From Parasitella parasitica NRRL 2501 (taxonomy: Eukaryota > Fungi > Mucoromycota): a stretch of DNA of 32,354 bases. Both the position numbers and the translations under genes were made by a program. The notes under the pieces were generated by a model. It did not search any database. It worked only from the letters and a program-made list of their open reading frames with translations, and was not told where the DNA came from. The stretch is taken from positions 1-32,354 of the forward strand of contig MU619434.1 in assembly GCA_025201805.1 (NCBI GenBank), written 5' to 3'. Below, one piece after another: positions 2,202 through 32,354 of the stretch. Each line of letters starts with the position of its first letter. Position 1 is the stretch's first letter.

Positions 2202-5200
2202 CTACAAGATACCCTATGTTTCCGTTCAAATTAGTACCTTATTCATTAATAACCACATCATAATGATATATATGTTGGTACCTGTGAGTAATATTGGTAT
2301 GTATCATAAAGCCGAGTGAATACATTGCAGCAACTACTCATGATCAATTTATCCACAAAAGTCTCTACTTGAGGTTCTGTCAAATGCAATTGGAAACGGT
2401 CCCTGAGGGCAGAAAGTGCATGTTGACCTCCATTTTGAAAACACGGTAATTTAGACTCTTTAGACATCATTTCAGTCAATAACAAAATGTTGTCACTGTG
2501 TTTGCGAACAGCTAAAAATGCTTGCTTTGTCAACGCTTTGTATTCAGCAAACATAGGGCTATTCACACCACCCAAGATATCGATGTACTCTTGCGGCAGC
2601 TTGAATGGAGCCATCTCAAAACCAACAGAACCGGGAGAATTGGACAAGATGAAGCCAAAATCTATATGAATAATATGGCCTGCATCATCAACCAAGAGGT
2701 TACCATTATGTCGATCTTTGATCTGCATCAAATAAGAAGCAATCGAGTACCCTGCTAAACTTTTCATGAATGCGACTTGGGCCTTTTTGTAACCTTCACT
2801 TTCAGGTGATCCCCAGCGCTACAGAGAATGAAAATGTTGGTATATAAGTTATATATCTCAACAGATAACCAAATGGACTTACCCTAGTATAATAGTCTTT
2901 CAATGAGAATACAGCGCCTTCTTCATTCCACTTCCTAGTATAAGCTTCTTTTTTTATAGAGTGAATAGATATCGAGTTCTTGACCGTTTCAATCAGACCA
3001 GAATCATCTGAAGTAACCAATACACGGATACTAAACAAAAACAGTTTAAGATAACATGACATGTGCAAGTGTGAATATCTACATACACAAACAATACTTA
3101 CTATTGAACCCAAACGTCTGTTTTAGTATCCTGCCAAATCTTTTGCATTTCTCGAATGAGTTGGATGGCAAACTGTTCTTGACGAAGATCTGCTCCATTC
3201 TTCACGATGACAGAAATTAAACGCCAGTTAGGCAAATGGCCATAAGGAGATGCAGAGCGGATACGTTCTTTCTTAGCATCCCAGTCTTCTGAAAAGACGG
3301 CAGCACTAGGATCTTCCTTGTTTACTACCATGGCAACACGCACTTGATCATCCAGTTTCTTTTCATTGCCAGCTCCTTCTCCTCCTCCACCACCGACTCC
3401 CTTATCAACGCCCTCCATAGCCATCTTTTCCATACGGTCATCTTCAAGTGCCATCATTTCAGCAATAATCTTTTGTCGAATCCCTTCTGTGCTAACTCGA
3501 ATCGTCAGATTGTCTTGCTGAGAAGGATGGTCTAATTGGAGTTGAGCTAACAAAATGGCGGCAGTCTTCATTTTCTCTGCGAATTCCTCTGCATCAAACG
3601 TACTCATATGCTCTTGATCTGAGTTGTCGTCTTTTGTATCCTTTGCATTCAAAATACCACACTCTTCGATCATGGTTTCAGAATGGTATGCGTTGTGATG
3701 AACCTCAATGGCAGCTGTTCCAATAGTAGAGGTGGAGGTTGAGCTCATAAGGTCTATGCTACGAGAGCTAGTTGGTGACCCAAGATCACCTATGTCCACA
3801 GCATTACTTTCTTCCAGCGACAGTTTTTTTTTGCTATTTCCACCCGAAAATCGCTGACTCTTTCGCTTGCTCTTTTTTATTTTGCTCAGCGAAGATTTGA
3901 ATCCATTTTCCAAACTAAGTTCGTCGTCCAACACCTCAATCATTAATAAATATGGCGCCTAGGCACATGTTAATTACTAATATACGGCAGATTTGTCTGT
4001 ATATATATATACAAAGAGGTACTTACTCTTTCTGCTGAATTCAAAACAACAGCGTCTGTAGGGCTAATTCTGACGATTCGATGATGATAAGGTCTGTCTA
4101 CGGTAGCAGGACACCACAAAGGCATACAGATTTCGGCAGGTAAATTGTGGTTCAACAAGGTCAATTCTGCATGCAGGGCACTTAATCTAGCCGGTTTCGG
4201 CACAATAACTAAGCGAGTGGCAATATCAACCAAGGCGAGTAGAAACTGCATCTCGGAACGAAAGTAATTTGATCGAAGCAAATGACGGCGATCATCAAGG
4301 CTCAACTTGGCCAACGCATAGACTTCATCGTCATCCGAGCTACTATTATTCACTAGATCATCCTCTTCTGTTTGGCGATGATAACGTTGTAAATCAGCCG
4401 AGGCAGACCGCTTCGGAGGGCTCTGTCCTAAGGCTTCTTCTGATGAAACGGAACGACATGGTGTACCTGGTGTAGTAGGCGTTGTAGGCGTTGTTGGCGT
4501 TGAAGGCGAATTAGCCAAGGGCACAGAAGATTGAGCCATGGCTTTCATGCTGGCAGGATTCATTCCTCTGCCCATCAGTAGCTGAGGTGGTGCGTTTGCA
4601 TCATGAGAGACCAATGTGGAACGGACTGTATGGTTAATCTTTTGTTGAGCTTGTTTCAGATACCGAGACACACTGAATGCTTTGCCTCGATGTAAATCTT
4701 CTAACGAGACGGTAAAGTGATTAGAATCGCCCAAGATGGAAGAAAACGCGGATGCTGATTTGGGTCGACTAGTATTTTTTTTAAGGGGTAATTGTGGATT
4801 TGAAGAAGACTGAAATGGTAATCTTTGCAGATCTCCATTGGAGGCGGCATCGGGAGGAGGGAGGGTGGAAGCATCAGACTCAGTTTCATCTAGTGTACTA
4901 TTACGGCGACTGACGACAGAAGCATCCACCGAGTTGAAAGTTGTGCGAGGCTTGCGTCCTTGAGCAATAGCTACACTACCAACAGGCCTTGTGGAAAGGG
5001 GTTGGCCAATACCGGCAAGCATAGCACCCATGCCTACCAATGCTGGAAACGCATTCTCACGCACATGCTGCGTTTTATTCAATTCAGCTGGATCGTCCTG
5101 ATTTTTTTCCGCAAAGATGATGGCTTGGCATCTATTCAGCACTCTTTTGCACAGTTGAAATGAAGGGTTCTGCGGATTGGCAGCTAAATCAGAGAGGTAG

Positions 5201-5601
5201 GCCTGGAGATACCAAAGACTCTACCCGACGGACGTCAGTTATCTTTTTTCATTATATCTAAGCAAAAGGATGGCTTACCATGACAGCAATATGTGTTGAT
5301 TGCTCACATGCATCTATGACATAGCATTCAAGAGCAACCGATTCTGTGGGACGGGTGATTAAAAGATGCCTAAATACAATCGATTGAGTAAAGAAATTGC
5401 CTTGTATCACATTGTCAAGTGTCTACAATACATGAGTTGAGGTAAAAAGAACTCAATTTCAGCTATAGGAAACTTTCTTAACTGGGTGCACAGGTAGTGT
5501 TGGATGCCGACATTATCAGGATAACGAAATATGTACGATATAGCAATCCAAGCATTGAAGTATTCAGATGTAAAGAGTCGCAATAGTAAGGCGTTCGACA
5601 T
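2202..5601 (-). CDS. PIK1: Phosphatidylinositol 4-kinase type III beta (Pik1), about 1002 aa
   Basis: Exons 5601-5432, 5369-5279, 5220-4027, 3958-3102, 3030-2883, 2818-2282, 2213-2202, all GT-AG and in phase. N-terminal LLRLFTSEYF...FFLPQL helical/LKU region; IVKNGADLRQE; QIKDRHNGN; HIDFGF; canonical C-terminus YQYYSQGIL*. Confidence 0.96.
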
Positions 5602-6448: not shown

Positions 6449-8345
<1,897 letters not shown>

Positions 8346-15080: not shown

Positions 15081-16657
15081 CTATTCAAATGAAAATGAAT
15101 CTGCAGCAGTTTGTCCGGTCCATCGCTTTTCAGCATAAACGTCGTTCATCCACTGCCTTTGTTTCATGAAATCAGTGGATATATAAAGAACAGAACTAAG
15201 AATAGATGATTTCCTGGGGTTTTCTAAAGTCTCTGCATTTAATCTTTTATACTGATTTCTTCGTAATTCGGTTTCCATGGAGAATGCTTTTTGAGTCATT
15301 GACAAGTAGGCATATTTGAATGCTCGGACTACCATCGACGAGTTGTATGATTTCATGCCGATATCGTTCGAGGAGTCCAATGGATCTTTAATCGAAAATA
15401 CAGCTTTACCATTCCTACACACAACATGGGACTGACTGTGCGTGTTAGAACTGTAGATCTAAAAAGCGGATGGGTACAGACATACCTTGTCATAGTAGCT
15501 TCCTTTTCCCTTTATATCAACCCCTGTTTCGTTCATGTTGAAGTTGAGCCCATACAGTTGAAAGAAATCTAATAATAAGACACCGATGTTCTGCATTGGA
15601 TCAATGGAGCCAGAAGCAACTTTTGGGTGCATTTGCAAAAAGCTGACAACCAAGCATACAACGGCATATCCGCCTAAACCACCCGTAAATACTTCATTGA
15701 GCGTACGCAGCGATAGTAAATGTTTGACAATAAGTGATAAAGGTCGAAGTCCAGGATACTGGATAAGCAAGCCGTTGATCTCTTCTGCACTATCCAAACC
15801 GCTGGTTGAATTCAGGATGATGTCGACTTTGAGGTTGGTCATGGAATCTGCAAATTTAATCACAGGAACCTATTTTGATGGCTCAATGAGCTGAGAATGG
15901 CATAATTCAACTGAAACTTACCGATGCGTGTTCAATGACTTGTGGATCGTGACATATTCCATCTGCTACCAGTGTATTTGCTAACCTTAGAAGGCGAATT
16001 TGGGTGGACGGAGGAAACTGAACAACAAGATCAATATCGCTGTTGGGTAGATACAGCGTTGTTGAAAAACTGCCAAATACCGACACTGTGGCTTTTGGCC
16101 ATTTTGCTTGCACTGAGGTTCGGATTCGATGGACAAGATAGTTCCTCAGCTTGATTTCGATTTCTGTTGGCTGGACATACTGAACAAAGCAGGTAACTTC
16201 ACGTTGTAGTAGTCGAATAGCTGAGAGTGGTTGTCTAAGACGATTTGATCCCATTAATTCCATCCAAGGATAGCATAGAAGCGTCTCTTGATTATCGTCT
16301 GAATCGCTATCGTCGCCTCGCTTACGCTTCAATTCAGCTCTTTGTTCGCTGCGCCTTTGTTGCCTGCTACGAGTGTCTACTTCTGTGTTTAACGAAATGA
16401 AATCCTCTTCTTTATTTTCATTGTCTGAATCTGAGAAAGAGCCCTCCGAACGAGTGTCTAATGCGATGTTGTATTGATGAGTCAGCCTATCGTGTGCTTT
16501 ATCAAAAAGAAATCCTACCATCTTCGTCATCATTTTCAAGATACTGATCATAGCTGGCATTATCTTCTTCACTCTCAGAGTAATCAATGTAGCTATGATC
16601 TCGCTTGTAGCTTCCCTTCTTCCATTTGGTCTGCTTTTTGCTCCTTCCTCTAGCCAT
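15081..16657 (-). CDS. TRF4: Non-canonical poly(A) polymerase Trf4/Pap2 (PAPD5/7, TRAMP subunit), about 469 aa
   Basis: Exons 16657-16519, 16457-15922, 15869-15486, 15431-15081. FGSFSTTLYLPNSDIDLVV (GS..DxD), VPVIKF, KVDI, LNEVFTGGLGGY, SIKDPLDSSNDIG (PAP-associated region). Confidence 0.93.
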
Positions 16658-17016
16658 GGCGACTGGTAATGATTGTATTAAATGCTGTTGTGGGTTAATA
16701 ATAAAAAATAAAAAGAGGAGGAAAAAAAGGGAAAGCATCACTTGTCAGTTATCCATTATACAAGCCACCAATGAATTGCATATTGTAAAATGCTGGTACT
16801 GAACAATTAGGTGGATGAATCTTGTGGATATAAAGGGCTCCCCTTAAAGTTCTCATGCAAGAATACATTAAAAGTCGTCTTTAAATATAATCGTTTAATG
16901 GGTATATAGAATATGCTAAAATACATGAAAGATAAAACCAAGTTGCTGTGCCTGTTTGTACACGAGCTGTGTAGCTGAATGTTGTATCTTCTGGGGTGCA
17001 AGTGCAATGACATGCC

Positions 17017-17818
17017 TTATTTTGCATCCACACCATCCACGCCTTCCATCGCTGGACTCTTCATGTTTGGAATATCCTCCATTGCAGGATCTTCGGCAAC
17101 AATTTTCTTTGGTCGTGGTTTATACCCTAATGCCACAAAAAACCCCTCCGTTGATTGTTTCCTCGATGCATCAGGCTTTTCAGTCTTTACTTTGGCAAAG
17201 ATAGTTTGTAGTCTCTTTCTGAACTCGTGTTCTGTGCCTCCCATCAAAAACTAGCCGATTGTAAATATAGAATCCCATTCAATGCATCATTAACGTGCTC
17301 ACCTTTGTTACGAATGAACCATCAGGCGATAAAACCTTCTCGGCAAATGTCAATGCTGATTCACATAGTTCTATACTTCTTGCATGGTCTGCCGTATGAT
17401 TACCTGAGAAACTAGGCGCCATATCTGAGCAAACTAGGTTCACAAGCCTGCCTTGCAAAATGTCATGAATAGCATTTTGTGTTTTCAATCGCATGAAATT
17501 TCCATTGATTAGATGTGCATTAGGAATTGGGTCAATAGGCAGCAGGTCAATCCCAATAACGAGCCCCTTTTTTGTCACCTTCTCGGCTGCCACTTGTGTC
17601 CATCCACCAGGTGCTGCTCCACAATCCACAACCACATCGTTACGCTGAATAATGCGATATTTTTCATTAATCTGGATTAGTTTGAATGCACTGCGTGCTC
17701 GATATTGGTTGGCTTTAGCCAGCTTGCAGTAAGGATCCCTGGCTTGTCGTGACATCCATTTCTTGGAAGATGTGGAATAGAGTCGTTTAAACGGTAATAG
17801 CGAACTCATCGTTGTCAT
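17017..17818 (-). CDS. MRM2: Mitochondrial rRNA 2'-O-methyltransferase (FtsJ/RlmE family), about 249 aa
   Basis: Exons 17818-17303 and 17250-17017. Basic, Ser-rich presequence-like N-terminus; W..RQ..DPY; YRARSAFKL; DCGAAPGGW; SDMAP; K-D-K-E tetrad (AFKL, SDM, VTKF, STEG). Confidence 0.93.
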
Positions 17819-19036
17819 AAGAATGTAAAAAATGTAGTAATGGCAAGGGACCTCGAAATGACTTTTGCGCTACTTCAAACAGATGATACTCGTAGCACAC
17901 ACAAGTCGATACAGGCATAGGTCAGCCCATGTAATTTTGGTTGTAGAAAGATGCAAAGATGATTGATCACTGCCTCAATGATTAGCAGAGATAGTTTATA
18001 TTCAAATTGCAATTGTATAGTATGCCAGGCCTCGCTATTAGCCTAGGCCTACTTGATGTATCTCTTATTTATCATGTCAGATTAAGTGCAACATTTTGTG
18101 GCAGTTTTGATATTTATTTAGGAATTGATAGACATGATATACCGTATCTATAGTGCGGTCAGATATATCTTAGCTTCCAATCCATAATAAGACGACAACA
18201 GAAAAAATCTATAGTCCCATTCTCTAGATCACACCATTTCCCACACTTACATCTTATCCCCATCAGTCCACTTAGATTCACTGGGCGCGCGGGCCATCCA
18301 AAAGGCTGAAATCCTTATTAAATGCAAGTTAGAGTATAGGGGTTGACCCTAATTAGCAGAAAACCGACAAGTATACATCATTTTTAGCATAGTCTTATTT
18401 AGTCTATGACATCAATACTAAATGCCCAAGTATCAAGTACTGTAACATTGAGTAGTCTTGTTTAGCATTATGTAGTATGTCTGTAGCATGTTATGAAAAT
18501 TTCTACAGCATTGCACATATTGCACAAGTCTCTAGTACATAGTATATGTCGTTTGTAGGTATTTACCAGGAATACCAGAAATTTAAGGTCTTATTGGATA
18601 ATCAGCGATTTATAGGTAACAGAAGATATGCAGCTAGATCTATTTAAACAATAAGACTATTATTAATTAATAAAGGAAAGTGGGGATTAGATAAGAGAAG
18701 TTGCTAGGGGGCCAGCAAGAATATTTTTCTTCTTTAGATCTCCCATTGCATTCGAAATGGCTTCTTTTTATATTTTTTGCGAGCTATCCAGTTCAAAGTT
18801 TCAGTGAACTAAAATATTCATTCAATAATAGGGATTAATTAGGTAATAATCTAGTGTGTATCAGTAAGGTGATAATGATAACATGGATCAAATAGGCAAG
18901 AATGACAACATGAACTAGTTAGGAGAGAACGATGATGCGGATTAGTAGATATAGGCAAGAGCGAGTCGAGATAAATTGTCTCTTTGGAGATAAATATGAT
19001 TGTTTCTGGTTTACGCTTGGCAGGTTCATTATGTTT

Positions 19037-22456: not shown

Positions 22457-25180
22457 TGGAATATTGTGTTCTCTTTAAAATTATCTCTGTTTTACCCAAT
22501 ATAAAGCGCACACCGAAATTTTGTGCAAATGTGCTTTTTTAACGTAATAAAGACTTTCTCACAGTAAAACTCCAAATACACAACTGGAGACTTTTATAGA
22601 CGTAAGACTTGATCAATCTTTAGCCATATAACTTGCTATAAATTCAGCAAAATCTTGTTTTGGCGTTATCTCGACAACTAAGATAGATATTGGAATTCAG
22701 AAAGCGCGGTCGACGAGATACAGTTATATTGTACTAGTGCTAGAACAAGGTAGATAATTTCCTTGGACCCTAAATCCATAACTCAAAATGATCCTGAAGG
22801 TTACCGCAAATTTGCAAATTGAAAATCTAATATGAGGTGTGGCGTCCAAACTCATTGTTATATCAATAACATGCCATAGACCTTGTAGCAAGATCAAGGA
22901 GCTAAAACCCAATGTACATATGGTAAATCAGGGATTTACACCGCATGCTTTATATATAAATGTTGGTTACAGTTGTGTATGATGACGTTAGCACATAATG
23001 TTAGTTAATAAAAATACATTCAGAGGATGTGTTTCTAATAAAAGTGTAACTCTTTGGCAGAATCATTTCACTGACTTATTTTGACATAACACTCATAGCA
23101 AAATCTGAAAAATGATCTGAAATATTTGAGAATTGGATATATGTTGTTATATAGAATAGTTCAAAGTTCAAATGGAAATTCTTTTGGCTGAAAGTTGTAC
23201 CTTCATCGCATAATAGTTTGTTAGCATAGCAGTAATTGGAAATTATGCTTTTGAGCGTGGAAAAGGGTTATGTCTCTGTTTTGGTGGTATGAACTTTACC
23301 CAAAAATGAAGAAGGTATATAAAAATGGGTTTTGAGTTCGTATTATTATGCGGTATTCCGGCTATCGATTCGTATTGAGACATCATACCCAAGTTACCCA
23401 TTAGAGTCGTGCTTTTTTTTTATTAAATTGAGAATAATAGGTGATGCACTCCTTTATAGCGGAAAAAAAAAAGACTGTAGATTGAATCTCAGCACTGTGT
23501 TTCCATTTGACTCAAACCAGTTTCGAGATTTTTTTTGCATCGTTCATTGCTAAATATCTCATAAACGCAATAGGTATATTGGATATGTGAACTAAGTGTT
23601 TTATGACAAAAATTAAATTCTGCACCCAACCATATTTATTACAAGGCTATGCAAACACCTTTTTTATTACCAATTTTCAAATATTCAAAAAATACCATTT
23701 TTGATAGTTTTTGAGTAAAATCAAGCATATTTTGAGCACATTCAGCTCTGTAAAGTTGACCAAACAAACCATCATGTCAATGCCTACAAATCAATACTTT
23801 GTTTACAACTGTAGCTTTATTATATCTGCCAAAAATCAAAATCTTGTCTCGACCAAAATGAATCCACCATTTTCCGGTCCTATGTTTAGAGGGCCAAAAT
23901 GAAGCCATTCAAAAGGGTAAAAATCAATGTCGTTTTTCGAGATTTTCTCGCTCAAAAATTGGTATTTTTTGACCAAACTAAAATCTTTTGGTAGCTATTT
24001 TGTAGCTCCATTTTAGTATTGGTATATCATGTATCTTTAAATACCATTTACTGCTCTGAAAACTGTGAAAGTAAATGAAGCCTCTGCTAAAAACATCTGA
24101 AAAAATTTTTTTTTCGACATATCTATTTAACACTAATAAAACTAGCAGAAAACTAAATTTTAAAAATATTTTAGTAATTACTCAGGCCAAGTTGTCATAG
24201 TGGTTTGTAGAGAAATAGGGAGACAAAGTTTAACGTAAAAAGACAAAATTGGCTCTAGATTGTCGAATTCGAGCTTTTGTACAACATGTTTAACACCAGA
24301 AGGTGCACCAAAATGTGCTTTATTACTTCACTTAGGAACGTAAACTTGGTTTAGTTGCAAAATAAGGTACTTGTACTAGGAACATATACTGTAAAATCCG
24401 CAAAATCTGAAAAATTTAGTTGTGGTAATATTTCGACAACAAAGATAGATATCGAGAATCGGAAGACGTAGTGAGGTAAAGTTGTCATACTAGTATTATT
24501 AGCCTTTATTCTTAGTTTGGACCTCAAATCCGTACCTAAAAATGACCCTGAAGGTTGACCCAAAGTTGAAAATTGAAAATCGAATCTGAGGTTTGGGGTC
24601 CAAACATAGCAAAATTTGAAAAATGGTCAGTGATGCATGAAACTCGGATATGCTGTAGAAGGACGCAAAAAAATAAGATGTTGGCTGAATGTTGTGTCTT
24701 TATCACTTACTAGTCTGAAAAGATATCAGAGATTGTAGATTATGCCTTTAAGCGGGGAAAAAGGTGATGGTCATGATTAGGTGGCATTTATTTCAACCTA
24801 AACATAAAGCCAAATAAAAATAGCTTTTATATTCATATTTTACAGCATCTTGGGTATCGATTCATGTAATGACATAACCAGATTGTTTTTGGAGTTCATG
24901 CTCTGCTCCTTAATTGAAATAAGTGCTTCACTGCAATAAAGAGCTGTATTCGCAGTGGTAAATTCAAGCTCAGAAATATGTTTCCATTGCAACTTGCGCA
25001 TATCCCTAATTTTCATTGCTTAATATCTCAAAAAATAGTATTGGAATGTGTTCTCTTTAAAATCATCTCCGTTTTACCCAATATAATGCGCACAGCGAAA
25101 TGATGTGCAAATGTGTTATTTTAACGTAATTTTTGGATCAAAAAAGATAATAAAAACTAAATATTAACGAGATACAGAAA
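22457..25180. repeat. Degenerate tandem array of palindrome-rich ~0.8-kb units
   Basis: 22457-22548 matches 25041-25130 and weakly 24290-24325; 22638-22855 matches 24392-24607; 23095-23565 matches 24606-25035. Module order X-Y-Z recurs. Confidence 0.75.
22856..23091. mobile_element. Solo LTR (236 bp) with 5-bp target-site duplication CTCAT
   Basis: Termini TGTTATATCAA...TTGACATAACA (10/11 inverted match, TG...CA); CTCAT at 22851-22855 and 23092-23096; internal TATATATAAA (about 22951) followed by AATAAA; the paralogous repeat unit at about 24600 lacks the insert. Confidence 0.85.
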
Positions 25181-25238
25181 CTTTAAGATACTTTATTTAA
25201 GATCAAAATTGGATCTGCTATTTATACTTTTTACAGCT

Positions 25239-25553
25239 ACATAAATTTATGGTGACTTATTCAGATTACTAATTTTTGACAAGACTAATTCACAGTGACA
25301 ATCTACTACTTGACAGGGTACAATATGAGGTTAATACAACAAGGGCTACACGTATTGGATCTGACAGTGCCTTAACCTTTATTCTGGTGCTCATATCTGT
25401 GTTACTTACAGGAATAACCTTCTTGATTTGAAACAGAGACTTTCTTCTCCAATTTACACAAGCGTATCACATCACATCATCATTGGACAATCTTCAATCT
25501 TCAATTGAAGCACATTGCCAATGATCTCCTGTCTATAGTTATGGCAGATCAAA
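25239..25553. repeat. Dispersed repeat family W, copy 2
   Basis: Colinear with 2-309. Minus-strand relic reads ICHNYRQEIIGNVLQLKIEDCPMMM*CDTLV*IGEEKSLFQIKKVIPVS. Confidence 0.85.
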
Positions 25554-25979: not shown

Positions 25980-26613
25980 TGACATGAGAGAAATGGTGTT
26001 TGTAGCATATTTCTTTTTATTTTTGAAGCTCAATAGGATACTGACAGTTGATGTTTATTTTCTTTGATGTTATTATGGTCGAATTGGTGGAAAGGGTTCA
26101 AAATATGGAATGAAAGGCTCTCAATTTGGATTTCATCTAATTAACAATAGCAATAACAACATATATATCTTTCTTACAACAGAAACAACAAGAATAATGT
26201 CAACAAAATCATCTCTTCGATCACATTCTTCTATTTAATTTTATTTTATTTTAATTCCTTATCATATTCAAGCATCTGCCGCACAGATTGCAACATTTTC
26301 TAGTTAGCCATTTAGTATAAATATCTCTTTCAATTGCAGGATTTTAATAAAAATAACTTTCCATTTTTATTTTTATAGGTTTCATTTTGACAAGACAACA
26401 TTAGACGTTATTTTCTGTGTTCCTTAATAACTTGTAAGTTACATGATGATGATTACAGAGAGGATCAACTGGATGATGTTTATTAACATAGCTCTGATTC
26501 ATTTTGTAATTTTTAGCTTGTTAATTACATCTAAATCCAATATCCTTCAAGTTAAAGAATTTCCATTTGATCAAACCGATCATATTTCGAACTATTCTCA
26601 TTTATCCGTTTCA
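25980..26613 (+). repeat. 5' LTR (start certain; end either ATGTCA at 26202 or TTTCA at 26613)
   Basis: Start fixed by identity with 32260 onward. TATAAATA (about 26316), AATAAA (about 26346) and a TGG-starting PBS candidate at 26617 favour the longer LTR. The perfect TGACAT/ATGTCA inverted termini favour the 223-bp LTR. Confidence 0.6.
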
Positions 26614-26616
26614 TTT

Positions 26617-26635
26617 TGGAGCAGCTACCGTGTTT
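26617..26635 (+). promoter_or_regulatory. Candidate primer-binding site TGGAGCAGCTACCGTG
   Basis: TGG follows ...TCA plus TTT, about 85 nt before the gag ATG. The cognate tRNA was not identified. Confidence 0.4.
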
Positions 26636-26700
26636 ATTTTCTATTCTTGGTTATCTCTGTTTATCATCTCCTATCAACTTACCTGTTTCTGTTTTATCGA

Positions 26701-27711
26701 ATGCCTGAGAAGAAAGAAAGCGCTACTGAAGGATCAACATCTGTTAGAGGGTCGTCTTCGTCGTTTGCTTTGGAAGATGTACGTACTGGTGCCACGGCTC
26801 GCATGAGCAAGTTTATCAACCGTCCTAAGTTGTTTTCGGGTATAATGACTGAGGGAGGAGAAAGGCCAAATCCTCGTGCGTGGTTAAGATCGTTGGACAC
26901 CCTGAGAAAGGGAATGGAATTTAGAGATGATGAAATTATTTTGGTTGCTGGTTCTTACCTGGTTGGTCCTGCAAATATTTGGTGGAATGCAGTCGAGTCA
27001 ACAATCAATACATACAATCAGTTTGTTCGTGAATTTACTGCACAATTTGCAAGTCAAGCCCAAATAGATGAGTGGTGGTCAGAATTGGAATCCATGAAGC
27101 AAGGTGATAACTCTGTGGATAGTGTCAAGTTTAGACTTCTGGAGTTATTTGAAATCTTGGGAATCTCTGGAGATAGCTCTAAGATTCGTTATTTTATGAA
27201 GGTGATTAGGCCGTCAATCGCTCAAAAGATTGCAGATCAGGGAAATGATAATGGGAATTGGGAGGAAGTGACTCTTGCTGCCAAAAGAATTGAGACTTCA
27301 GACATCAAGTATTCAAGGAGGATTCAGCAAGACGATGTGATCGTATCTAAGCCAGCAGTGTTGATTACTGACAAGATGAGAACCGTAATGAACGATCAAG
27401 ACAGTGACAAACGTAGTAATGGTGGTTCATCCTCACATCCGTTCCCTGATTCTGAGAGTGTTCAATCATTTTCGTCGTTATCCACTATAATGAAGGAGTT
27501 GTGCCAAGAAATGAGTGAATTGAAGTTAACACTGAATACTCAAGCCAATGCCGCTCGTATGCCGCCTCAGTCTGCTCCTCGCTCCGTACCCATTTGCTAT
27601 GATTGTAAGCAGCCAGGCCACATTTCTAGGTATTGCCCAGGCCAGCAACAGAGGCAAAGTGTTTCTTTCAACGATGGATTGTCGGGAAAAGAGGAGGGAC
27701 GTCAACAATAA
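26701..27711 (+). CDS. Gag (capsid plus CCHC zinc knuckle), 336 aa from the probable ATG
   Basis: PKLFSG...PRAWL...YLVGPANIWW...FVREF...MKQG (retrotransposon gag domain); CYDCKQPGHISRYC. Confidence 0.92.
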   Translation: MPEKKESATEGSTSVRGSSSSFALEDVRTGATARMSKFINRPKLFSGIMTEGGERPNPRAWLRSLDTLRKGMEFRDDEIILVAGSYLVGPANIWWNAVESTINTYNQFVREFTAQFASQAQIDEWWSELESMKQGDNSVDSVKFRLLELFEILGISGDSSKIRYFMKVIRPSIAQKIADQGNDNGNWEEVTLAAKRIETSDIKYSRRIQQDDVIVSKPAVLITDKMRTVMNDQDSDKRSNGGSSSHPFPDSESVQSFSSLSTIMKELCQEMSELKLTLNTQANAARMPPQSAPRSVPICYDCKQPGHISRYCPGQQQRQSVSFNDGLSGKEEGRQQ

Positions 27712-27751
27712 ATGCTGATTCTCCAGTTGACGCCCCTAATTTAGAGAATCA
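27684..27751 (+). promoter_or_regulatory. -1 programmed ribosomal frameshift signal: slippery heptamer plus H-type pseudoknot
   Basis: G_GGA_AAA at 27684-27690 is in correct gag phase and pol is in the -1 frame. Stem 1 pairs 27695-27706 with 27726-27737; stem 2 pairs 27716-27723 with 27744-27751. Confidence 0.85.
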
Positions 27752-30524
27752 AAACTCTGAAACCTCTTCTCCAATGGCTAGGAATTACCTTGTTGATACA
27801 GTTCAGCCTTCGGATGGTGTAGATGTTTTTTATGTTGCCAAAAGACACCATAATACTAGCTCGTCCAATGACTCAAATGAAAGGCCAAGTAGAAGACGTC
27901 AGAAGAACCATGATATCAGGAAGGAACCAAGAGTGATCATCAAAGTCCCTCCTAAGTCTAAGCCTGTTGTTGACCCTGCTGATTCAGATGTTGCTGGTCC
28001 TTCTTCACTTTTGGTCGAGCCACCTGCCCCTGAATCAATGATAATTGAGCCGCCTGTTGCGGTGAAGAGGCTGCGTGCTCCACCTAAACGTCTTCCTGTT
28101 GAAAGGAGGGCTCTTGACACTTGGGACAAACTAGATTCGGTTGGTGCACCAATTACATTCAAGGATTGGCTTCTGAGTGATAAAAATGCAAGAGAACAGT
28201 TGAAGCAAGGTTTACGGTTTATTGATGGTCGTAAATCTAGGAAGCTAGAAAAGAGACAGATGAATGGTGTGAATAACATTACTACAGACCAATATACTTA
28301 CAGCTTGTCTTCGGAGGAGTATGATTCCACATCATCGGATGTTGGGTCATCTTACGACGACGGGTACAATGAGAACCAATCAATAGGAAGCCTGGATGTT
28401 CTGGATAATAATGATAGCGATGATGACACTATTTACGATTATCCTTATCATAAACAAGCCTTGTTGTCATCGACGCCCTTGTATGTGAACGGCACCATAT
28501 TTGATCGAAAAGTCAAGGTGGTTATTGACTCTGGATCAAGCATCTCGCTCCTTAGTAAATCAATAGCTATTGAGTTGGGCCTAATTGGTACTGGTGATTG
28601 TATTCCTATTTCTACCTTGGATACAACATCGATAGATCATGTCAAATCTGAAAAGGAACGCGATTGTGAAGTTACTGTAGCTGTTCCTGTTCGCATTGGT
28701 GGCAAGCTTCGAAGCGAACATATGATTATCAAGGACGATAGTGCTTGTATTCGTGGTGAGGCAGTTGTTCTTCTTGGTATGACTTGGTTGCGACAATACG
28801 ATATTAAGATTCATACAAAGGAGGCACTGATTGAGATTCCAGTCAAGAATGGAGGCTCGTCAATTCTAGTTCAAGGATGGTGCACTGAAGAAAGAGGGGT
28901 ATTGACTTCACCTGCTTCTATAAGAGAAGTTTTTGCTGTATCTGTGTTTGGAGGTAGTTCTGTGACTGATGAGGTCAAGATCGGTCCAATTGATACAACC
29001 TTTAACCTGGACACTCAATACAAGTATATCCCTGACACCTTAAGGTCTTATCTTGAGGAGGCATTACCGAGTGACGATGAGGTACCCGACACAAGGTCTA
29101 AAGTGGATGACGATGTGGAGAAATACTTTAACGAAAGACTTAAGGAGATGCCTCAATCATTAGCTCGTTTACTGACAAAATGCAAGTTACAATTCTCGGA
29201 GTTTGGTGGCCTTGGTTGTATTAAGGGTGCAGAACATAGAATACAATTGAAGCCTGGTGTAACGCCGGTGCGATCAAGACCTTACAAGATAACTTGGGAA
29301 GAAGATGAGTTTTTGCGTGAAGAATTGGATCGATTGTTATCTCTTGGTGTCATCCGCAGGTCTTCTGGTTTGTGGACTTCACCAGTATTTTTTGTCAAAA
29401 AGAAGCCAGCTGGTCTTAGAATGGTTTATGATTTGAGAGCTTTGAACCAAAGGACTGTTCGTGAAGATTTCCCTTTACCAAGGATTCAAGATCTGCTAGA
29501 CGGTTTCCATGGTGCCAAGTACTTTTCAGTATGTGACGCTTGCAGTGGATTTTTGCAAATCAAGTTGTCAGATGATTCCATTCCTCTCACAGGGCATATT
29601 ACTAAGTATGGCTGTTTTGAAATGACTCGAATGCCGTATGGATGTCAAGGTGGTCCTGGGACCTACTCTAGGGAAATGCTTAAGATGTTAGGACCTTATA
29701 TTGGTGAATGTTTTCAGGTTTTTATTGACGACATTTGTATTTTTTCTGCAACGTATGATGAGCATTTGAAGCACCTTGAATTGTTATTTAATATCTGTAA
29801 TGAATACAACTTGAAGTTGAGATTTGCCAAATGTCATTTTATGAAGCCATCAGTGGAATATTTGGGACACACAATATCAAGGAAAGGCGTAACGTCGACA
29901 CAAAGAAACGTACAGAAGCTGCTCGATATGGAGGTGCCTAAGGACACTGCGGGTGTAAAGTCTTTTGTGGCTACAGCAAACTTTTACCGTCGAAGCCTCA
30001 AGAATGTTGCTTCGGTTGCAGTTCCTTTGACTGGATTGCTTAAGAAAGGTGTCAAATTTTTATGGGGAGATGAACAGCAGGAAGCATTCGATCAAATCAA
30101 GCAAATGCTGACCACGGCACCTATTTTGGCGTACCCAGACAAGAAGCAAGTGCAGATATTGACGACTGATGCTTCATCTAGAGGTATTGGCTGTATTTTG
30201 TCTCAAAGTCCTGATGGGTCAGAGGCTAATGAAACGGTGGTTGCCTATGGGTCAAGAACATTGCGAGGTGCAGAAACAAGGTACTCAGCTACCCATTTGG
30301 AAGCATTTGCTGTGGTTTGGAGCGTGAATTACTTTAGGCACTATCTGGCTGGGAGACGATTTGTTCTGAGGACAGATCACAGTTCCCTCAAGTTTATTTT
30401 CAAGAATGAAAATCCAACTCCCAAGGTCGATAGGTGGGCTGCTGCTTTGATGGGCTATGACTATGACGTGCGTTATATACGCGGCGTTGACAACCCAACT
30501 GATTCTATTAGTCGTCTTATTTAG
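27684..30524 (+). CDS. Pol: aspartic protease, reverse transcriptase and RNase H (no integrase), expressed by -1 frameshift
   Basis: VVIDSGSS (PR); SPVFFVKK..LRMVYDLRALN, MPYG, FIDD, YLGH (RT); TDAS, LEAFAVVW, TDH, NPTDSISR (RH); TAG at 30522-30524. Confidence 0.96.
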   Translation, partial: GKRGGTSTINADSPVDAPNLENQNSETSSPMARNYLVDTVQPSDGVDVFYVAKRHHNTSSSNDSNERPSRRRQKNHDIRKEPRVIIKVPPKSKPVVDPADSDVAGPSSLLVEPPAPESMIIEPPVAVKRLRAPPKRLPVERRALDTWDKLDSVGAPITFKDWLLSDKNAREQLKQGLRFIDGRKSRKLEKRQMNGVNNITTDQYTYSLSSEEYDSTSSDVGSSYDDGYNENQSIGSLDVLDNNDSDDDTIYDYPYHKQALLSSTPLYVNGTIFDRKVKVVIDSGSSISLLSKSIAIELGLIGTGDCIPISTLDTTSIDHVKSEKERDCEVTVAVPVRIGGKLRSEHMIIKDDSACIRGEAVVLLGMTWLRQYDIKIHTKEALIEIPVKNGGSSILVQGWCTEERGVLTSPASIREVFAVSVFGGSSVTDEVKIGPIDTTFNLDTQYKYIPDTLRSYLEEALPSDDEVPDTRSKVDDDVEKYFNERLKEMPQSLARLLTKCKLQFSEFGGLGCIKGAEHRIQLKPGVTPVRSRPYKITWEEDEFLREELDRLLSLGVIRRSSGLWTSPVFFVKKKPAGLRMVYDLRALNQRTVREDFPLPRIQDLLDGFHGAKYFSVCDACSGFLQIKLSDDSIPLTGHITKYGCFEMTRMPYGCQGGPGTYSREMLKMLGPYIGECFQVFIDDICIFSATYDEHLKHLELLFNICNEYNLKLRFAKCHFMKPSVEYLGHTISRKGVTSTQRNVQKLLDMEVPKDTAGVKSFVATANFYRRSLKNVASVAVPLTGLLKKGVKFLWGDEQQEAFDQIKQMLTTAPILAYPDKKQVQILTTDASSRGIGCILSQSPDGSEANETVVAYGSRTLRGAETRYSATHLEAFAVVWSVNYFRHYLAGRRFVLRTDHSSLKFIFKNENPTPKVDRWAAALMGYDYDVRYIRGVDNPTDSISRLI

Positions 30525-30850
30525 TTTAGTTATGTGTATTGTAGGTTGAACATTGTTAGTCTGCACATTTGGTATTTTAAATTGTTCTACATTTTTATTT
30601 AGCATAGTTAAGATTAACATTATCATTCCTCACATTTACAAAACATATATCTATGAGCCTTAGTTTCTTAAAAAAAAAAGAAAAAGAAGAAGGGACATCC
30701 ATCAAAAACAATTCAAATTTTTATCTTATATCGTATCTTTTATTGAATAAACCTTTTACTCTATATATTTTATTTTATTTATTAGGGGGAATTCTTCTAA
30801 GGAAGAGCCCTTTTGTAGTTCCCATTTTATCTTGCACTCAGTTTACCTTA

Positions 30851-32194
30851 ATGGATTACTCGGATTACATTGGTCTTTTTAACTATTTAACAAGAGGGAT
30901 CTATCCAACGGACGCTACCCTAGGGAGGAAGGCTACTATTAGAAGAAAAGCTAAGAAATATGTAACGCAGGGAGGAAGGATTTACCAAAGAACTATTCAA
31001 GACGGCAAGGAATATCTAGGCAAGGAGCTATTACATGAGGGCATCATTGAACAGATGATTGTTCGGGTTCACCAAGAAGGGCATACTGGAATCTCTAATA
31101 CTTGGAAAAAGGTCAATGTTCAGTTCGCTGGTAAGAAATTGTACGAAAGGGTGGTTTCCTTGGTCAAGTCGTGCATTACCTGTCAAATGAGGCAGAGGAT
31201 ACCTCATCTTCGCGTTACTCCGGGCCATCCAATTCCAACACCTTCAAGACCTTTTTATATGGTTGGTACTGATTGCATTGGTCCCTTGGAAAGAACTCGT
31301 TCAGGTAATAAGTATATCATGGTGGCAAGCGATTATTTGACTCGGTGGCCGATTGCTGTTGCTTGCAGGAAAATTGACGCAGTTACTACTGATAAGTTTC
31401 TCTTTAATAATATTGTTTCCGTATATGGTGTGCCTTCGTTTTTGGTCAGTGATCGTGGCAGCAACTATATGAGTGCTTACTTGCAGTCCTTTTTACGCAG
31501 CTTGGAATGTACACATCGCTTCACTACAAGTCGTCGTCCTCAGTCAAATGGGCAAGTAGAAAGATTGAATCAAACGTTAGTACAGACTATGGCTAAGCTA
31601 ATGCGTGATGATTCTGCTGGAAAACACTGGGACGAATATATCATTCCTGCCTTGATGTGTATACGAACGATGGTAAATGAAGCAACGGGTTTTAGTCCGA
31701 GTATGTTATTATATGGTTACGATATACGTACTCCTTCTACTTGGGTTCCGCCAACTTATGAATTTGATGCTGGTACTACAAATATTGCGATTGAGATTGC
31801 CATTAGAGCGAAGGAAATTGAAGGATGGCTTGTTGATGTGAGGTTGGCAGCGAAGAAGAACTCGGACGACAGGAAGAAGGCAAGAAAGAACATATATGAT
31901 CGTCGTGTAGTACCTAGAGAGCCATTCAAGATTAACGATAAGGTATTGATGAAGGACCATTACCCGTCAAACAAATTCGCTGATCTTTACATTGGTCCGT
32001 TAACGGTGGTCAAGCATAATCCTGGTACAAATACTTATTATTTGATTGGCCCTAATTCAAGACGTGTTGAACATGCTGTTCATGGTGATATACTGCTGCC
32101 ATTTAAGGAGAGATTGAATATGGTTCCTGCTGATCAAGTTACAAGAGCGATGAATAAATTTCAATCATGGTTGGATAAGGCTGCGCTGAATTGA
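30851..32194 (+). CDS. Stand-alone Gypsy-type integrase, 447 aa from ATG 30851 (frame open from ATG 30653)
   Basis: N-terminal YLTRGIYP...IRRKAKKY helix region; HQEGH...CITC (HHCC); GTDCIGP, SDRG, then E 35 residues later (D,D35E); GPY/F-type C-terminus YIGPLTV...VHGD; no chromodomain seen. Confidence 0.93.
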   Translation: MDYSDYIGLFNYLTRGIYPTDATLGRKATIRRKAKKYVTQGGRIYQRTIQDGKEYLGKELLHEGIIEQMIVRVHQEGHTGISNTWKKVNVQFAGKKLYERVVSLVKSCITCQMRQRIPHLRVTPGHPIPTPSRPFYMVGTDCIGPLERTRSGNKYIMVASDYLTRWPIAVACRKIDAVTTDKFLFNNIVSVYGVPSFLVSDRGSNYMSAYLQSFLRSLECTHRFTTSRRPQSNGQVERLNQTLVQTMAKLMRDDSAGKHWDEYIIPALMCIRTMVNEATGFSPSMLLYGYDIRTPSTWVPPTYEFDAGTTNIAIEIAIRAKEIEGWLVDVRLAAKKNSDDRKKARKNIYDRRVVPREPFKINDKVLMKDHYPSNKFADLYIGPLTVVKHNPGTNTYYLIGPNSRRVEHAVHGDILLPFKERLNMVPADQVTRAMNKFQSWLDKAALN

Positions 32195-32248
32195 TTACGG
32201 ATGAATTTCGATGGTGTTGAAGAAGGAAATATACAAAAGAAATAAGCT

Positions 32249-32256
32249 AGGGAGGA
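32249..32256 (+). promoter_or_regulatory. Polypurine tract
   Basis: AGGGAGGA lies 3 nt before the TG of the 3' LTR, within a purine-rich stretch. Confidence 0.8.
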
Positions 32257-32259
32257 TTA

Positions 32260-32354
32260 TGACATGAGAGAAATGGTGTTTGTAGCATATTTCTTTTTAT
32301 TTTTGAAGCTCAATAGGATACTGACAGTTGATGTTTATTTTCTTTGATGTTATT
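32260..32354 (+). repeat. 3' LTR (partial)
   Basis: Identical to 25980-26074. Confidence 0.97.

Follow-up and report, generated by a model that had tools for sequence, protein, structure and literature searches.

In the LTR retrotransposons and retroviruses that have been studied, integrase enters the particle as part of Gag-Pol, which also sets its ratio to reverse transcriptase (RT). Foamy viruses make Pol from its own spliced mRNA, although this Pol still contains integrase. In Ty3, a canonical member of the Metaviridae, the protease frees integrase from Gag-Pol within the particle (PMC4974528). DIRS-1 encodes its recombinase in a frame separate from RT and RNase H (RNH) (PMC5006619). Foamy viruses and DIRS are functional analogues of the element described here in that an enzyme is made apart from its usual partner, but DIRS uses a tyrosine recombinase and neither system frees a DDE integrase from RT. 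The first-pass annotation of this locus had also named Skipper as splitting Pol around the protease, which is not supported by the domain order given for Skipper-1 ORF2, PR-RT-RNH-IN-CHD (PMC5006619). YPYY-type Gypsy integrases carry a Y/F-P-Y/F-Y/F motif of ~40 aa upstream of the zinc finger and include those of Gypsy-1-I_RO from Rhizopus oryzae, DGLT-A and Athila/Tat-related groups; Ginger1, GIN1 and GIN2 are described as free, Met-started Gypsy-like integrases with YPYY, H2C2, DDE and GPY/F parts (Bao et al., 2010, PMC2836005). A literature search, with Repbase and GyDB outside its scope, found no description of a stand-alone-integrase layout with a long spacer.

The window, a 32,354-nt stretch of contig MU619434.1 from Parasitella parasitica NRRL 2501, contains an intact Ty3/Gypsy element with three ORFs (gag, pro-RT-RH and integrase) between LTRs (Table 1). 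Pfam located gag/CCHC, protease, RT, RNase H and integrase H2C2/rve domains in these ORFs, which are undisrupted as first annotated. The element resembles Ty3 in its direct LTRs, in the order of gag (capsid and CCHC knuckle) followed by PR-RT-RH-IN, in a frameshifted Gag-Pol (predicted here) and in its integrase fold. It also has the HHCC, D-D35-E and GPY/F-type C-terminal modules, and both RT and integrase group with Gypsy elements in trees calculated without curated reference elements. In contrast to Ty3, RNase H and integrase share no ORF, being separated by a stop codon and a 326-nt spacer. Because its integrase is not encoded within the Pol polyprotein, the element is a derived variant lineage of Ty3/Gypsy (Metaviridae) and not a canonical member. 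It is also not assigned to the chromoviruses, as the integrase C-terminus gave no Chromo match in Pfam at E 0.1. The hairpin following the putative frameshift heptamer has a folding energy of -15.3 kcal/mol (z -2.19) and was equally stable in 3 of 200 shuffled sequences. No tRNA genes were found in the window. The candidate splice-donor-like GTAAGT is kept in a diverged LTR variant that has several changes in the 24 nt before the site (loose end in X6 behind 26410).

Table 1. Features of the Parasitella parasitica element, in window coordinates.
Feature	Position	Strand	Basis
5' LTR, 634 bp, TG...CA ends	25980..26613	+	direct repeat with 32260; loose contig ends at 25980 and 26613 in runs X6/X2
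GTAAGT, candidate splice-donor-like site within LTR	26434..26439	+	pattern scan
Putative primer-binding site, TGG start, 3 nt past LTR	26617..26630	+	position and TGG start only
gag, 336 aa, capsid and CCHC knuckle	26701..27711	+	Pfam, ORF
Predicted -1 frameshift: G GGA AAA heptamer in gag frame, then hairpin (27695-27737)	27684..27737	+	sequence and folding
pol frame: protease, RT, RNase H; stop two codons past NPTDSISR	27630..30524	+	ORF, Pfam
AT-rich spacer, 326 nt	30525..30850	+	sequence
Stand-alone integrase, 447 aa	30851..32194	+	ORF, Pfam, alignment, structure model
Purine-rich tract, putative PPT, directly before 3' LTR	32235..32256	+	sequence position
3' LTR start (TG), 95 nt identical to 5' LTR; window ends inside 3' LTR	32260..32354	+	direct repeat

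The stand-alone integrase begins with a YPYY-type extension (identified by eye on alignment columns 1-50 against the description in PMC2836005), followed by the zinc-binding residues H74, H78, C108 and C111 and the catalytic residues D141, D201 and E237. Its C-terminus consists of a GP-type SH3-like domain and a terminal helix and lacks a chromodomain. This helix is common to the fused sister elements described below, and no C-terminal motif specific to split integrases was found. The structure model (pLDDT 80.1) has the integrases of PFV and Ty3 as its best Foldseek matches. The N-terminal motif is shared with the YPYY-type Gypsy elements, for which no separate integrase ORF was found in the description in PMC2836005.

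At the junction, Pol ends two codons after the last RNase H motif (NPTDSISRLI-stop, TAG 30522-30524) and the spacer has a GC content of 26%, compared to 41-43% for gag, pol and integrase. The pol frame meets another stop at 30600, and the integrase, beginning MDYSDY, is in a different frame from pol; these features all agree with the first-pass annotation. The spacer contains a purine/A tract (30670-30695), a pyrimidine tract and a CAG (30839-30841) nine bases before the integrase ATG. Its only ATGs are at 30532 and 30653. The latter, not mentioned previously, is in frame with the integrase, whose frame is open from 30608, and could serve as an alternative start codon adding 66 aa. As had been noted, terminal inverted repeats (TIRs) are lacking at the spacer, within which no inverted repeat of at least 25 nt was found; together with flat contig depth in runs X3, X5, X6 and X2, this indicates that the spacer is not a dispersed repeat. 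A 14-nt word shared by spacer and LTR (0 of 60 shuffles) is T-rich and of low complexity and was not considered meaningful.

Contigs from four runs (four studies) span the spacer without gaps, ruling out a misassembly. Single contigs in X3, X5 and X6 cover positions 26466-32288 with nine substitutions and no gaps, all substitutions lying outside the stop codon and the spacer, and a single X2 contig covers 27032-32288 with four substitutions and no gaps. The X1 contig breaks at a poly-A run inside the spacer, and in X4 the element has no internal cover. A possible RNA run (X14) yielded one 147-nt LTR-like piece and none on the ORFs.

The same layout occurs in sister elements across Mucorales, which was the main check proposed for the locus: Pol stops after RNase H and is accompanied by a separate, Met-started integrase. 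Pol ends 1-45 aa after NPxDxxSR in 39 of the best 42 RT-RH matches (median 4.5 over 40 including the query), the remaining three comprising two proteins truncated earlier and a fish protein of 34% identity. All 77 integrase sequences scoring at least 490 bits on a clade profile lack RT and RNase H, although this profile, derived from 27 split sequences, favors such sequences in its scores. The best fused integrases reached 38% identity over most of the integrase in a search of long proteins and 455 bits in a length-free profile search. Residues H74, C108, C111, D141, D201 and E237 are conserved in 77/77 integrases, and H78 is present in the 27 rows aligned. A Met occupies profile position 1 in 69 of the 77, with four having it 2-3 residues earlier and four being N-terminally truncated; as ORF callers begin at Met, this count is inflated for proteins without upstream extensions, but 13 integrases with such extensions still show Met at this column. 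In ten integrases, the reading frame extends 16-94 aa upstream, with an AT-rich codon make-up like that of the spacer and without an RNase H motif; this points to long non-coding spacers as opposed to overlapping stop and start codons. In three annotated contigs, a truncated Pol and a free integrase carry neighboring locus tags (INT47_007113/4, INT47_005641/2 and G6F70_008831/30), and integrase and RT identities co-vary among nine elements paired on same-sized contigs (rho 0.60, 10/5000 permutations). The layout, together with intact catalytic residues, extends to dozens of relatives with identities as low as ~40%. One of 13 metagenome loci (L001) belongs to the clade, and locus searches found no members in viral contigs or prokaryote genome contigs. 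The three-ORF layout is therefore conserved in the Pol stop after RNase H, the Met column and the catalytic residues.

At unrelated Gypsy loci used as a control, RNase H and integrase are fused at 42 of 50 junctions; the other eight are broken and end in irregular tails of 25-273 aa. This general frequency of broken copies is all that speaks for disruption of a normal Pol by a private insertion, by decay or by an error in assembly, an extremely improbable explanation that is ruled out by the independent contigs spanning the spacer and by the layout conserved in dozens of relatives; in addition, the LTRs are identical over the visible 95 nt, as first reported. The separate integrase is a lineage trait and not the result of decay.

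A lineage-wide layout could also be produced if the spacer were an intron, with splicing removing the stop codon and restoring a fused RT-RH-IN while unspliced RNA serves as the genome. Pyrimidine tracts and YAG sites do occur in the AT-rich spacer, some joins would keep the frame (for one of them, 30524 to 30663, the donor falls within the stop codon), and a Met that is also kept in fused sisters need not be a start codon. However, all in-frame donors preserving the RNase H end read GTCGTC, GTCTTA or GTTTAG, whereas the two host introns read in the window begin with GTATGT and GTAAGG. Furthermore, the Pol tails of relatives are 1-45 aa long and several are acidic like fused linkers, unlike intron read-through, the four integrases without Met at the column have one 2-3 residues upstream, and upstream extensions are not conserved. 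Splicing back to a fused Pol is thus disfavored on sequence grounds and appears improbable.

L001 provides the single other junction at the DNA level, with RNase H followed by a 20-aa tail, a stop codon, a 323-nt spacer and a Met. Its spacer is unrelated to that of P. parasitica, as expected if the layout is kept while the spacer sequence diverges: no similarity beyond chance was detected (longest common word 10 nt, matched in 25 of 60 shuffles), and these two spacers, the only ones examined at this level, share no common motif. Neither contains stable structure (folding z +0.5 and +2.4), and they contain two (P. parasitica) and one (L001) ATGs. These features would suit a route without a subgenomic RNA, in which ribosomes enter the full-length genomic RNA internally, or reinitiate once past the Pol stop, to translate the integrase; so would the A-rich tract of the P. 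parasitica spacer and the K/E-rich, i.e. A-rich, stretches carried by three long upstream extensions. Against this possible but rather doubtful route, stop and start codons are more than 320 nt apart without overlap at both loci, the depletion of spacer ATGs (P 0.004 against base shuffles) loses significance when dinucleotides are shuffled (P 0.09), and L001 lacks a clear A tract. Moreover, little protein would be expected from reinitiation downstream of a long ORF whose own translation depends on frameshifting.

RT and integrase trees agree in giving one Mucorales split clade, showing a single origin of this clade in both. It received SH-aLRT supports, from quick searches, of 100 in the integrase tree (93 rows of 311 eligible) and in the RT-RH tree (66 rows), and of 99 under a mixture model (38 rows); all rows were hand-picked to thin near-copies and sample outgroups. 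The clade is nested with fused elements of Calcarisporiella and Harpellales. Fused sisters from Calcarisporiella thermophila, Zancudomyces culisetae and Smittium culicis are the nearest relatives in both trees, although the Harpellales proteins P0100-P0103, gene models without an RT core, are absent from the RT tree. In contrast to the split elements, their RNase H continues into the integrase through a linker of 18-51 aa. A feature overlooked in the first-pass annotation is that 13 of 15 fused sisters carry a Met at the integrase start. The start codon therefore predates the split, and Met conservation alone does not show initiation. Since the trees give no firm order at the base where Calcarisporiella, the Harpellales group and the split elements meet, the direction from fused to split rests on the fused outgroups.

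This loose basal order leaves some room for a separate state that is ancestral, or for an integrase captured from a Ginger1-like DNA transposon, with the fused sisters representing later fusions. The YPYY-type N-terminus as in Ginger1 (PMC2836005), Atlas look-alikes named GIN1-like (0.97) and the many stand-alone, Met-started YPYY-type integrases outside the clade are compatible with such a history. Nevertheless, we consider it very unlikely, as all sampled RT outgroups are fused and RT and integrase trees share the same fused sisters, indicating that the integrase was not swapped. Ginger1 itself has TIRs, a single transposase without RT and a C-terminal OTU/Ulp1 domain, whereas the integrase described here lies between LTRs with gag and RT, and the element contains neither TIRs nor an Ulp1/OTU domain. 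The sole Ginger1-like protein in the tree (P0377, integrase plus Ulp1) falls outside the clade of split and fused-sister elements. Of the link to Ginger1/GIN1 drawn initially, the resemblance in the YPYY N-terminus and the Atlas look-alikes thus holds, while descent does not. Fission at an old cleavage site, and not Ginger1 capture, is the most likely origin of the split.

Taken together, the element is intact and belongs to a Ty3/Gypsy lineage that spans Mucorales. We favor the view that its integrase is probably made from a subgenomic mRNA, with translation starting at the Met of that ORF, and probably reaches the cDNA by non-covalent binding. In a fused ancestor, protease cleavage would have placed the mature integrase N-terminus at or near the conserved Met. 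A stop codon may then have arisen after RNase H, with the linker growing into a non-coding AT-rich spacer and the pre-existing Met becoming the start codon. We infer the steps of integrase expression and packaging from sequence features: Gag and Gag-Pro-RT-RH would be made from genomic RNA via the predicted -1 frameshift, and integrase from a shorter RNA generated either by a spacer promoter or by splicing of the LTR donor at 26434 to an acceptor such as the CAG at 30841, two routes that we do not rank. The free, basic integrase might enter the particle or meet the cDNA by binding RNA, DNA or Gag-Pol. More speculatively, and with lower likelihood, the integrase may be a freely expressed, trans-acting protein with its own mRNA and regulation that is not loaded via Gag-Pol, is perhaps unpackaged and captures finished cDNA like a transposase; a Met at the old cleavage site would ease fission, which may have occurred repeatedly in fungi and may mirror the origin of free Gypsy-like integrases.

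A lineage spread over several Mucorales families without a Gag-Pol-integrase link suggests that this link is dispensable, and polyprotein fission may have followed a simple path, as suggested by the Met that fused sisters already carry. Annotation software built around a single Pol ORF will tend to call such intact elements broken or to list their integrases as hypothetical host genes, as database names illustrate. In genetically tractable fungi, these elements offer a natural system for studying how integrase finds cDNA and whether RT needs integrase.

As first annotated, the element contains three open reading frames (ORFs), with pol stopping after RNase H and the integrase (IN) following a spacer in another frame (see table), and its visible LTR parts are identical (95 bases from 25980 compared with those from 32260). 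The hairpin behind the predicted frameshift heptamer was equalled in stability by 3 of 200 shuffles. The IN frame is open from 30608 and includes an in-frame upstream ATG at 30653, which the first-pass annotation overlooked; the predicted IN structure (pLDDT 80.1) best matches the PFV and Ty3 integrases. The sequencing runs also yield diverged variants of the LTR (26059-26613) and several further LTR flanks, which means that the genome contains related families or solo LTRs. Just 5' of the element, a very high-copy dispersed repeat (25000-25552; contig depth hundreds of times that of the flank) is related to partial copies at 1-309, 22465-22851 and 24517-24605.

Features of the element and neighbouring host genes (window coordinates)
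Feature	Position	Length	Remarks
Host gene (-), with introns	2258-5220		presumably phosphatidylinositol 4-kinase-like
Host gene (+), with introns	6449-8345		presumably glucose-6-phosphate isomerase-like
Host gene (-), with introns	15081-16677		presumably Trf4-type poly(A) polymerase-like
Host gene (-), with introns	17279-17869		presumably FtsJ-type rRNA methyltransferase-like
5' LTR	25980-26613		borders fixed by loose contig ends at 25980 and 26613
gag	26701-27711		overlaps pol frame
pol frame	27630-30524		protease, RT and RNase H; stop at 30522-30524
Predicted -1 frameshift	27684-27690		G GGA AAA heptamer in gag/pol overlap, hairpin behind
Spacer	between pol stop and IN	326 nt	26% GC
Integrase	30851-32194	447 aa	frame different from pol
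3' LTR start	32260 to window end		repeats 5' LTR

More than 90% of sampled window words were present in six of the 16 listed runs (five studies), and one of these six may be the window's own source. Single contigs span the RNase H-spacer-IN junction without gaps in runs X3, X5, X6 and X2, and assembly error was rejected as the cause of the pol/IN break on these grounds; X3, X5 and X6 carry the same nine substitutions and therefore may be one strain. X1 contigs end at a poly-A run within the spacer, and no internal cover was seen in X4. The differences in X9 equal the number of C on one strand in 28097-30111 (341/341) and of G on the other in 30359-30653 (53/53), which is the pattern of a base-converted library. 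Taken as such, X9 also shows the pol stop, together with 129 nt from the 5' end of the spacer. Full conversion in its contigs over 26503-30653 would imply little cytosine methylation of the element in that sample.

The first-pass annotation had proposed examining whether relatives keep the stop, the spacer and the IN Met while the spacer sequence diverges; the stop and the Met were recovered across relatives, and a diverged spacer at one other locus. Pol ends 1-45 aa past the RNase H motif in 39 of the 42 best Pol matches, the others being two proteins truncated earlier and a distant fish protein; matches under about 41% identity are mostly fused, i.e. with RNase H and IN in one ORF. Three pairs of adjacent locus tags join such a Pol to a stand-alone IN, and RT and IN identities co-vary over nine elements (rho 0.60; 10 of 5000 permutations) paired by assuming that contigs of equal size hold the same element. 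Among control junctions from unrelated Gypsy loci, 42/50 are fused and the eight broken ones have irregular tails; five further loci without integrase in reach were excluded. Some clade members (P0165, P0167 and P0200) appear with Gag and Pol in one protein, in contrast to the predicted frameshift of the window copy; this difference may reflect genuine variation or the merging of gene models.

A protein search with IN returned 96 matches of 245-783 aa (39-93% identity), mostly integrases of 435-450 aa, with names from Parasitella, Rhizopus, Mucor, Choanephora, Absidia, Lichtheimia and Circinella. As this search was unable to show fused forms, a long-protein search (59 matches, the best being Smittium and Zancudomyces proteins at 38% across most of the query) and a length-free search with a profile built from 27 split sequences (best 150 listed) were added. 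A near-whole integrase domain is present in 311 proteins; all 77 of these that score at least 490 bits are stand-alone, and the top fused protein reaches 455 bits on that profile. All 77 retain the six zinc and catalytic residues; Met lies at profile position 1 in 69 and two to three residues earlier in four, and four are truncated. The split layout is conserved across Mucorales and is a real lineage trait, and its presence in dozens of relatives with intact catalytic residues agrees with the earlier judgement that decay was unlikely.

At L001, a metagenome locus of the clade and the only other junction read as DNA, a 20-aa tail and stop precede a 323-nt spacer and Met, and no similarity beyond chance to the window spacer was found. 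In ten INs that are extended upstream by 16-94 aa, the codon make-up of the extension is AT-rich (FYINK 0.35, GARP 0.11) like that of the window spacer (0.37/0.10; off-frame pol, 0.20-0.25/0.17-0.24), and no RNase H motif was found in these extensions; non-coding spacers of great length thus seem to be general in the split lineage.

Splicing that restores a fused Pol is quite improbable, as it would require GTCGTC, GTCTTA or GTTTAG as donor, which do not resemble GTATGT and GTAAGG at host donors in the window, and Pol tails in relatives vary and are often acidic, resembling linker remnants. Judging from sequence features, we moderately favor expression of IN from a subgenomic mRNA, for which GTAAGT at 26434 in the LTR, retained by a diverged LTR variant, is a candidate donor and a pyrimidine tract with CAG nine bases 5' of the IN ATG a candidate acceptor; the spacer could equally act as a promoter for this mRNA. 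Internal ribosome entry or reinitiation, although compatible with the unstructured, ATG-poor spacers, is an unlikely source of IN given the more than 320 nt between pol stop and IN start and an ATG deficit that is not significant (P 0.09). According to PMC4974528, Ty1 and Ty3 IN is freed from Gag-Pol within the particle; in contrast, a free IN would need a non-covalent route, binding RNA, cDNA, Gag or RT. Split INs are basic (mean K+R-D-E +19 over 75), a value that does not discriminate, and no split-specific motif was found in the IN C-terminal region.

No account of a Gypsy lineage that encodes integrase in an ORF of its own was found in the literature searched, which lies outside Repbase, GyDB and most subscription papers. 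Text passages of PMC3248453, PMC6431247, PMC5911963, PMC5006619, PMC2582038, PMC4427930 and PMC5941688 contain none, nor do those of PMC9963178 and PMC11943222, whose drawings of Mucor Gypsy ORFs could bear on the matter. According to PMC3248453, the most successful element of R. oryzae is a Gypsy clustering with no other, and separate ORFs in PMC13468544 concern an additional RNase H.

The comparison of RT and IN trees suggested earlier yielded a single split clade with integrase (35/93 rows, SH-aLRT 100), RT-RH (40/66 rows, SH-aLRT 100) and a mixture model (12/38 rows, support 99), these supports stemming from quick searches without bootstrap, and basal order in the trees being unsettled. 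The nearest relatives in both proteins are fused elements, among them Calcarisporiella thermophila and, for IN, also Zancudomyces and Smittium elements. Of the 15 fused sisters (including two pairs of near-copies), 13 have a linker of 18-51 aa followed by a Met at the column of the split IN start. A single origin from fused ancestors is most likely on these trees; the simplest reading would be fission at the old IN N-terminus, putatively a protease cleavage site, whereby a Met already present became the start codon. Seven Harpellales Gag-Pol models (P0100-P0103, P0288, P0290 and P0305) have protease, RNase H and IN without the RT core, and are either gene-model artefacts splicing out RT or RT-deleted elements. 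P0294 (443 aa), a stand-alone, Met-started IN, is sister (100) to fused P0289 in a Harpellales-like group; it may represent another split, arisen independently at the same Met, or else a broken copy.

The resemblance to GIN1 and Ginger1 in the first-pass annotation held for the protein: Atlas look-alikes of IN are GIN1-like clusters (0.97), and IN has in common with Ginger1 and some Gypsy integrases a YPYY-type N-terminus, which Bao et al. (PMC2836005) describe also for Gypsy-1-I_RO of Rhizopus, an element for which the supplement gave no match. Further stand-alone, Met-started INs of 413-632 aa form a separate group (P0309, P0313, P0318, P0320, P0328, P0344, P0357, P0362 and P0377) and may represent either transposases of the Ginger1 kind or additional split lineages. 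P0377, an integrase that like Ginger1 carries an Ulp1 domain, falls outside the split-plus-sister clade in the integrase tree, so the split lineage would, judging from this single protein, be an analogue of Ginger1 and not its source.
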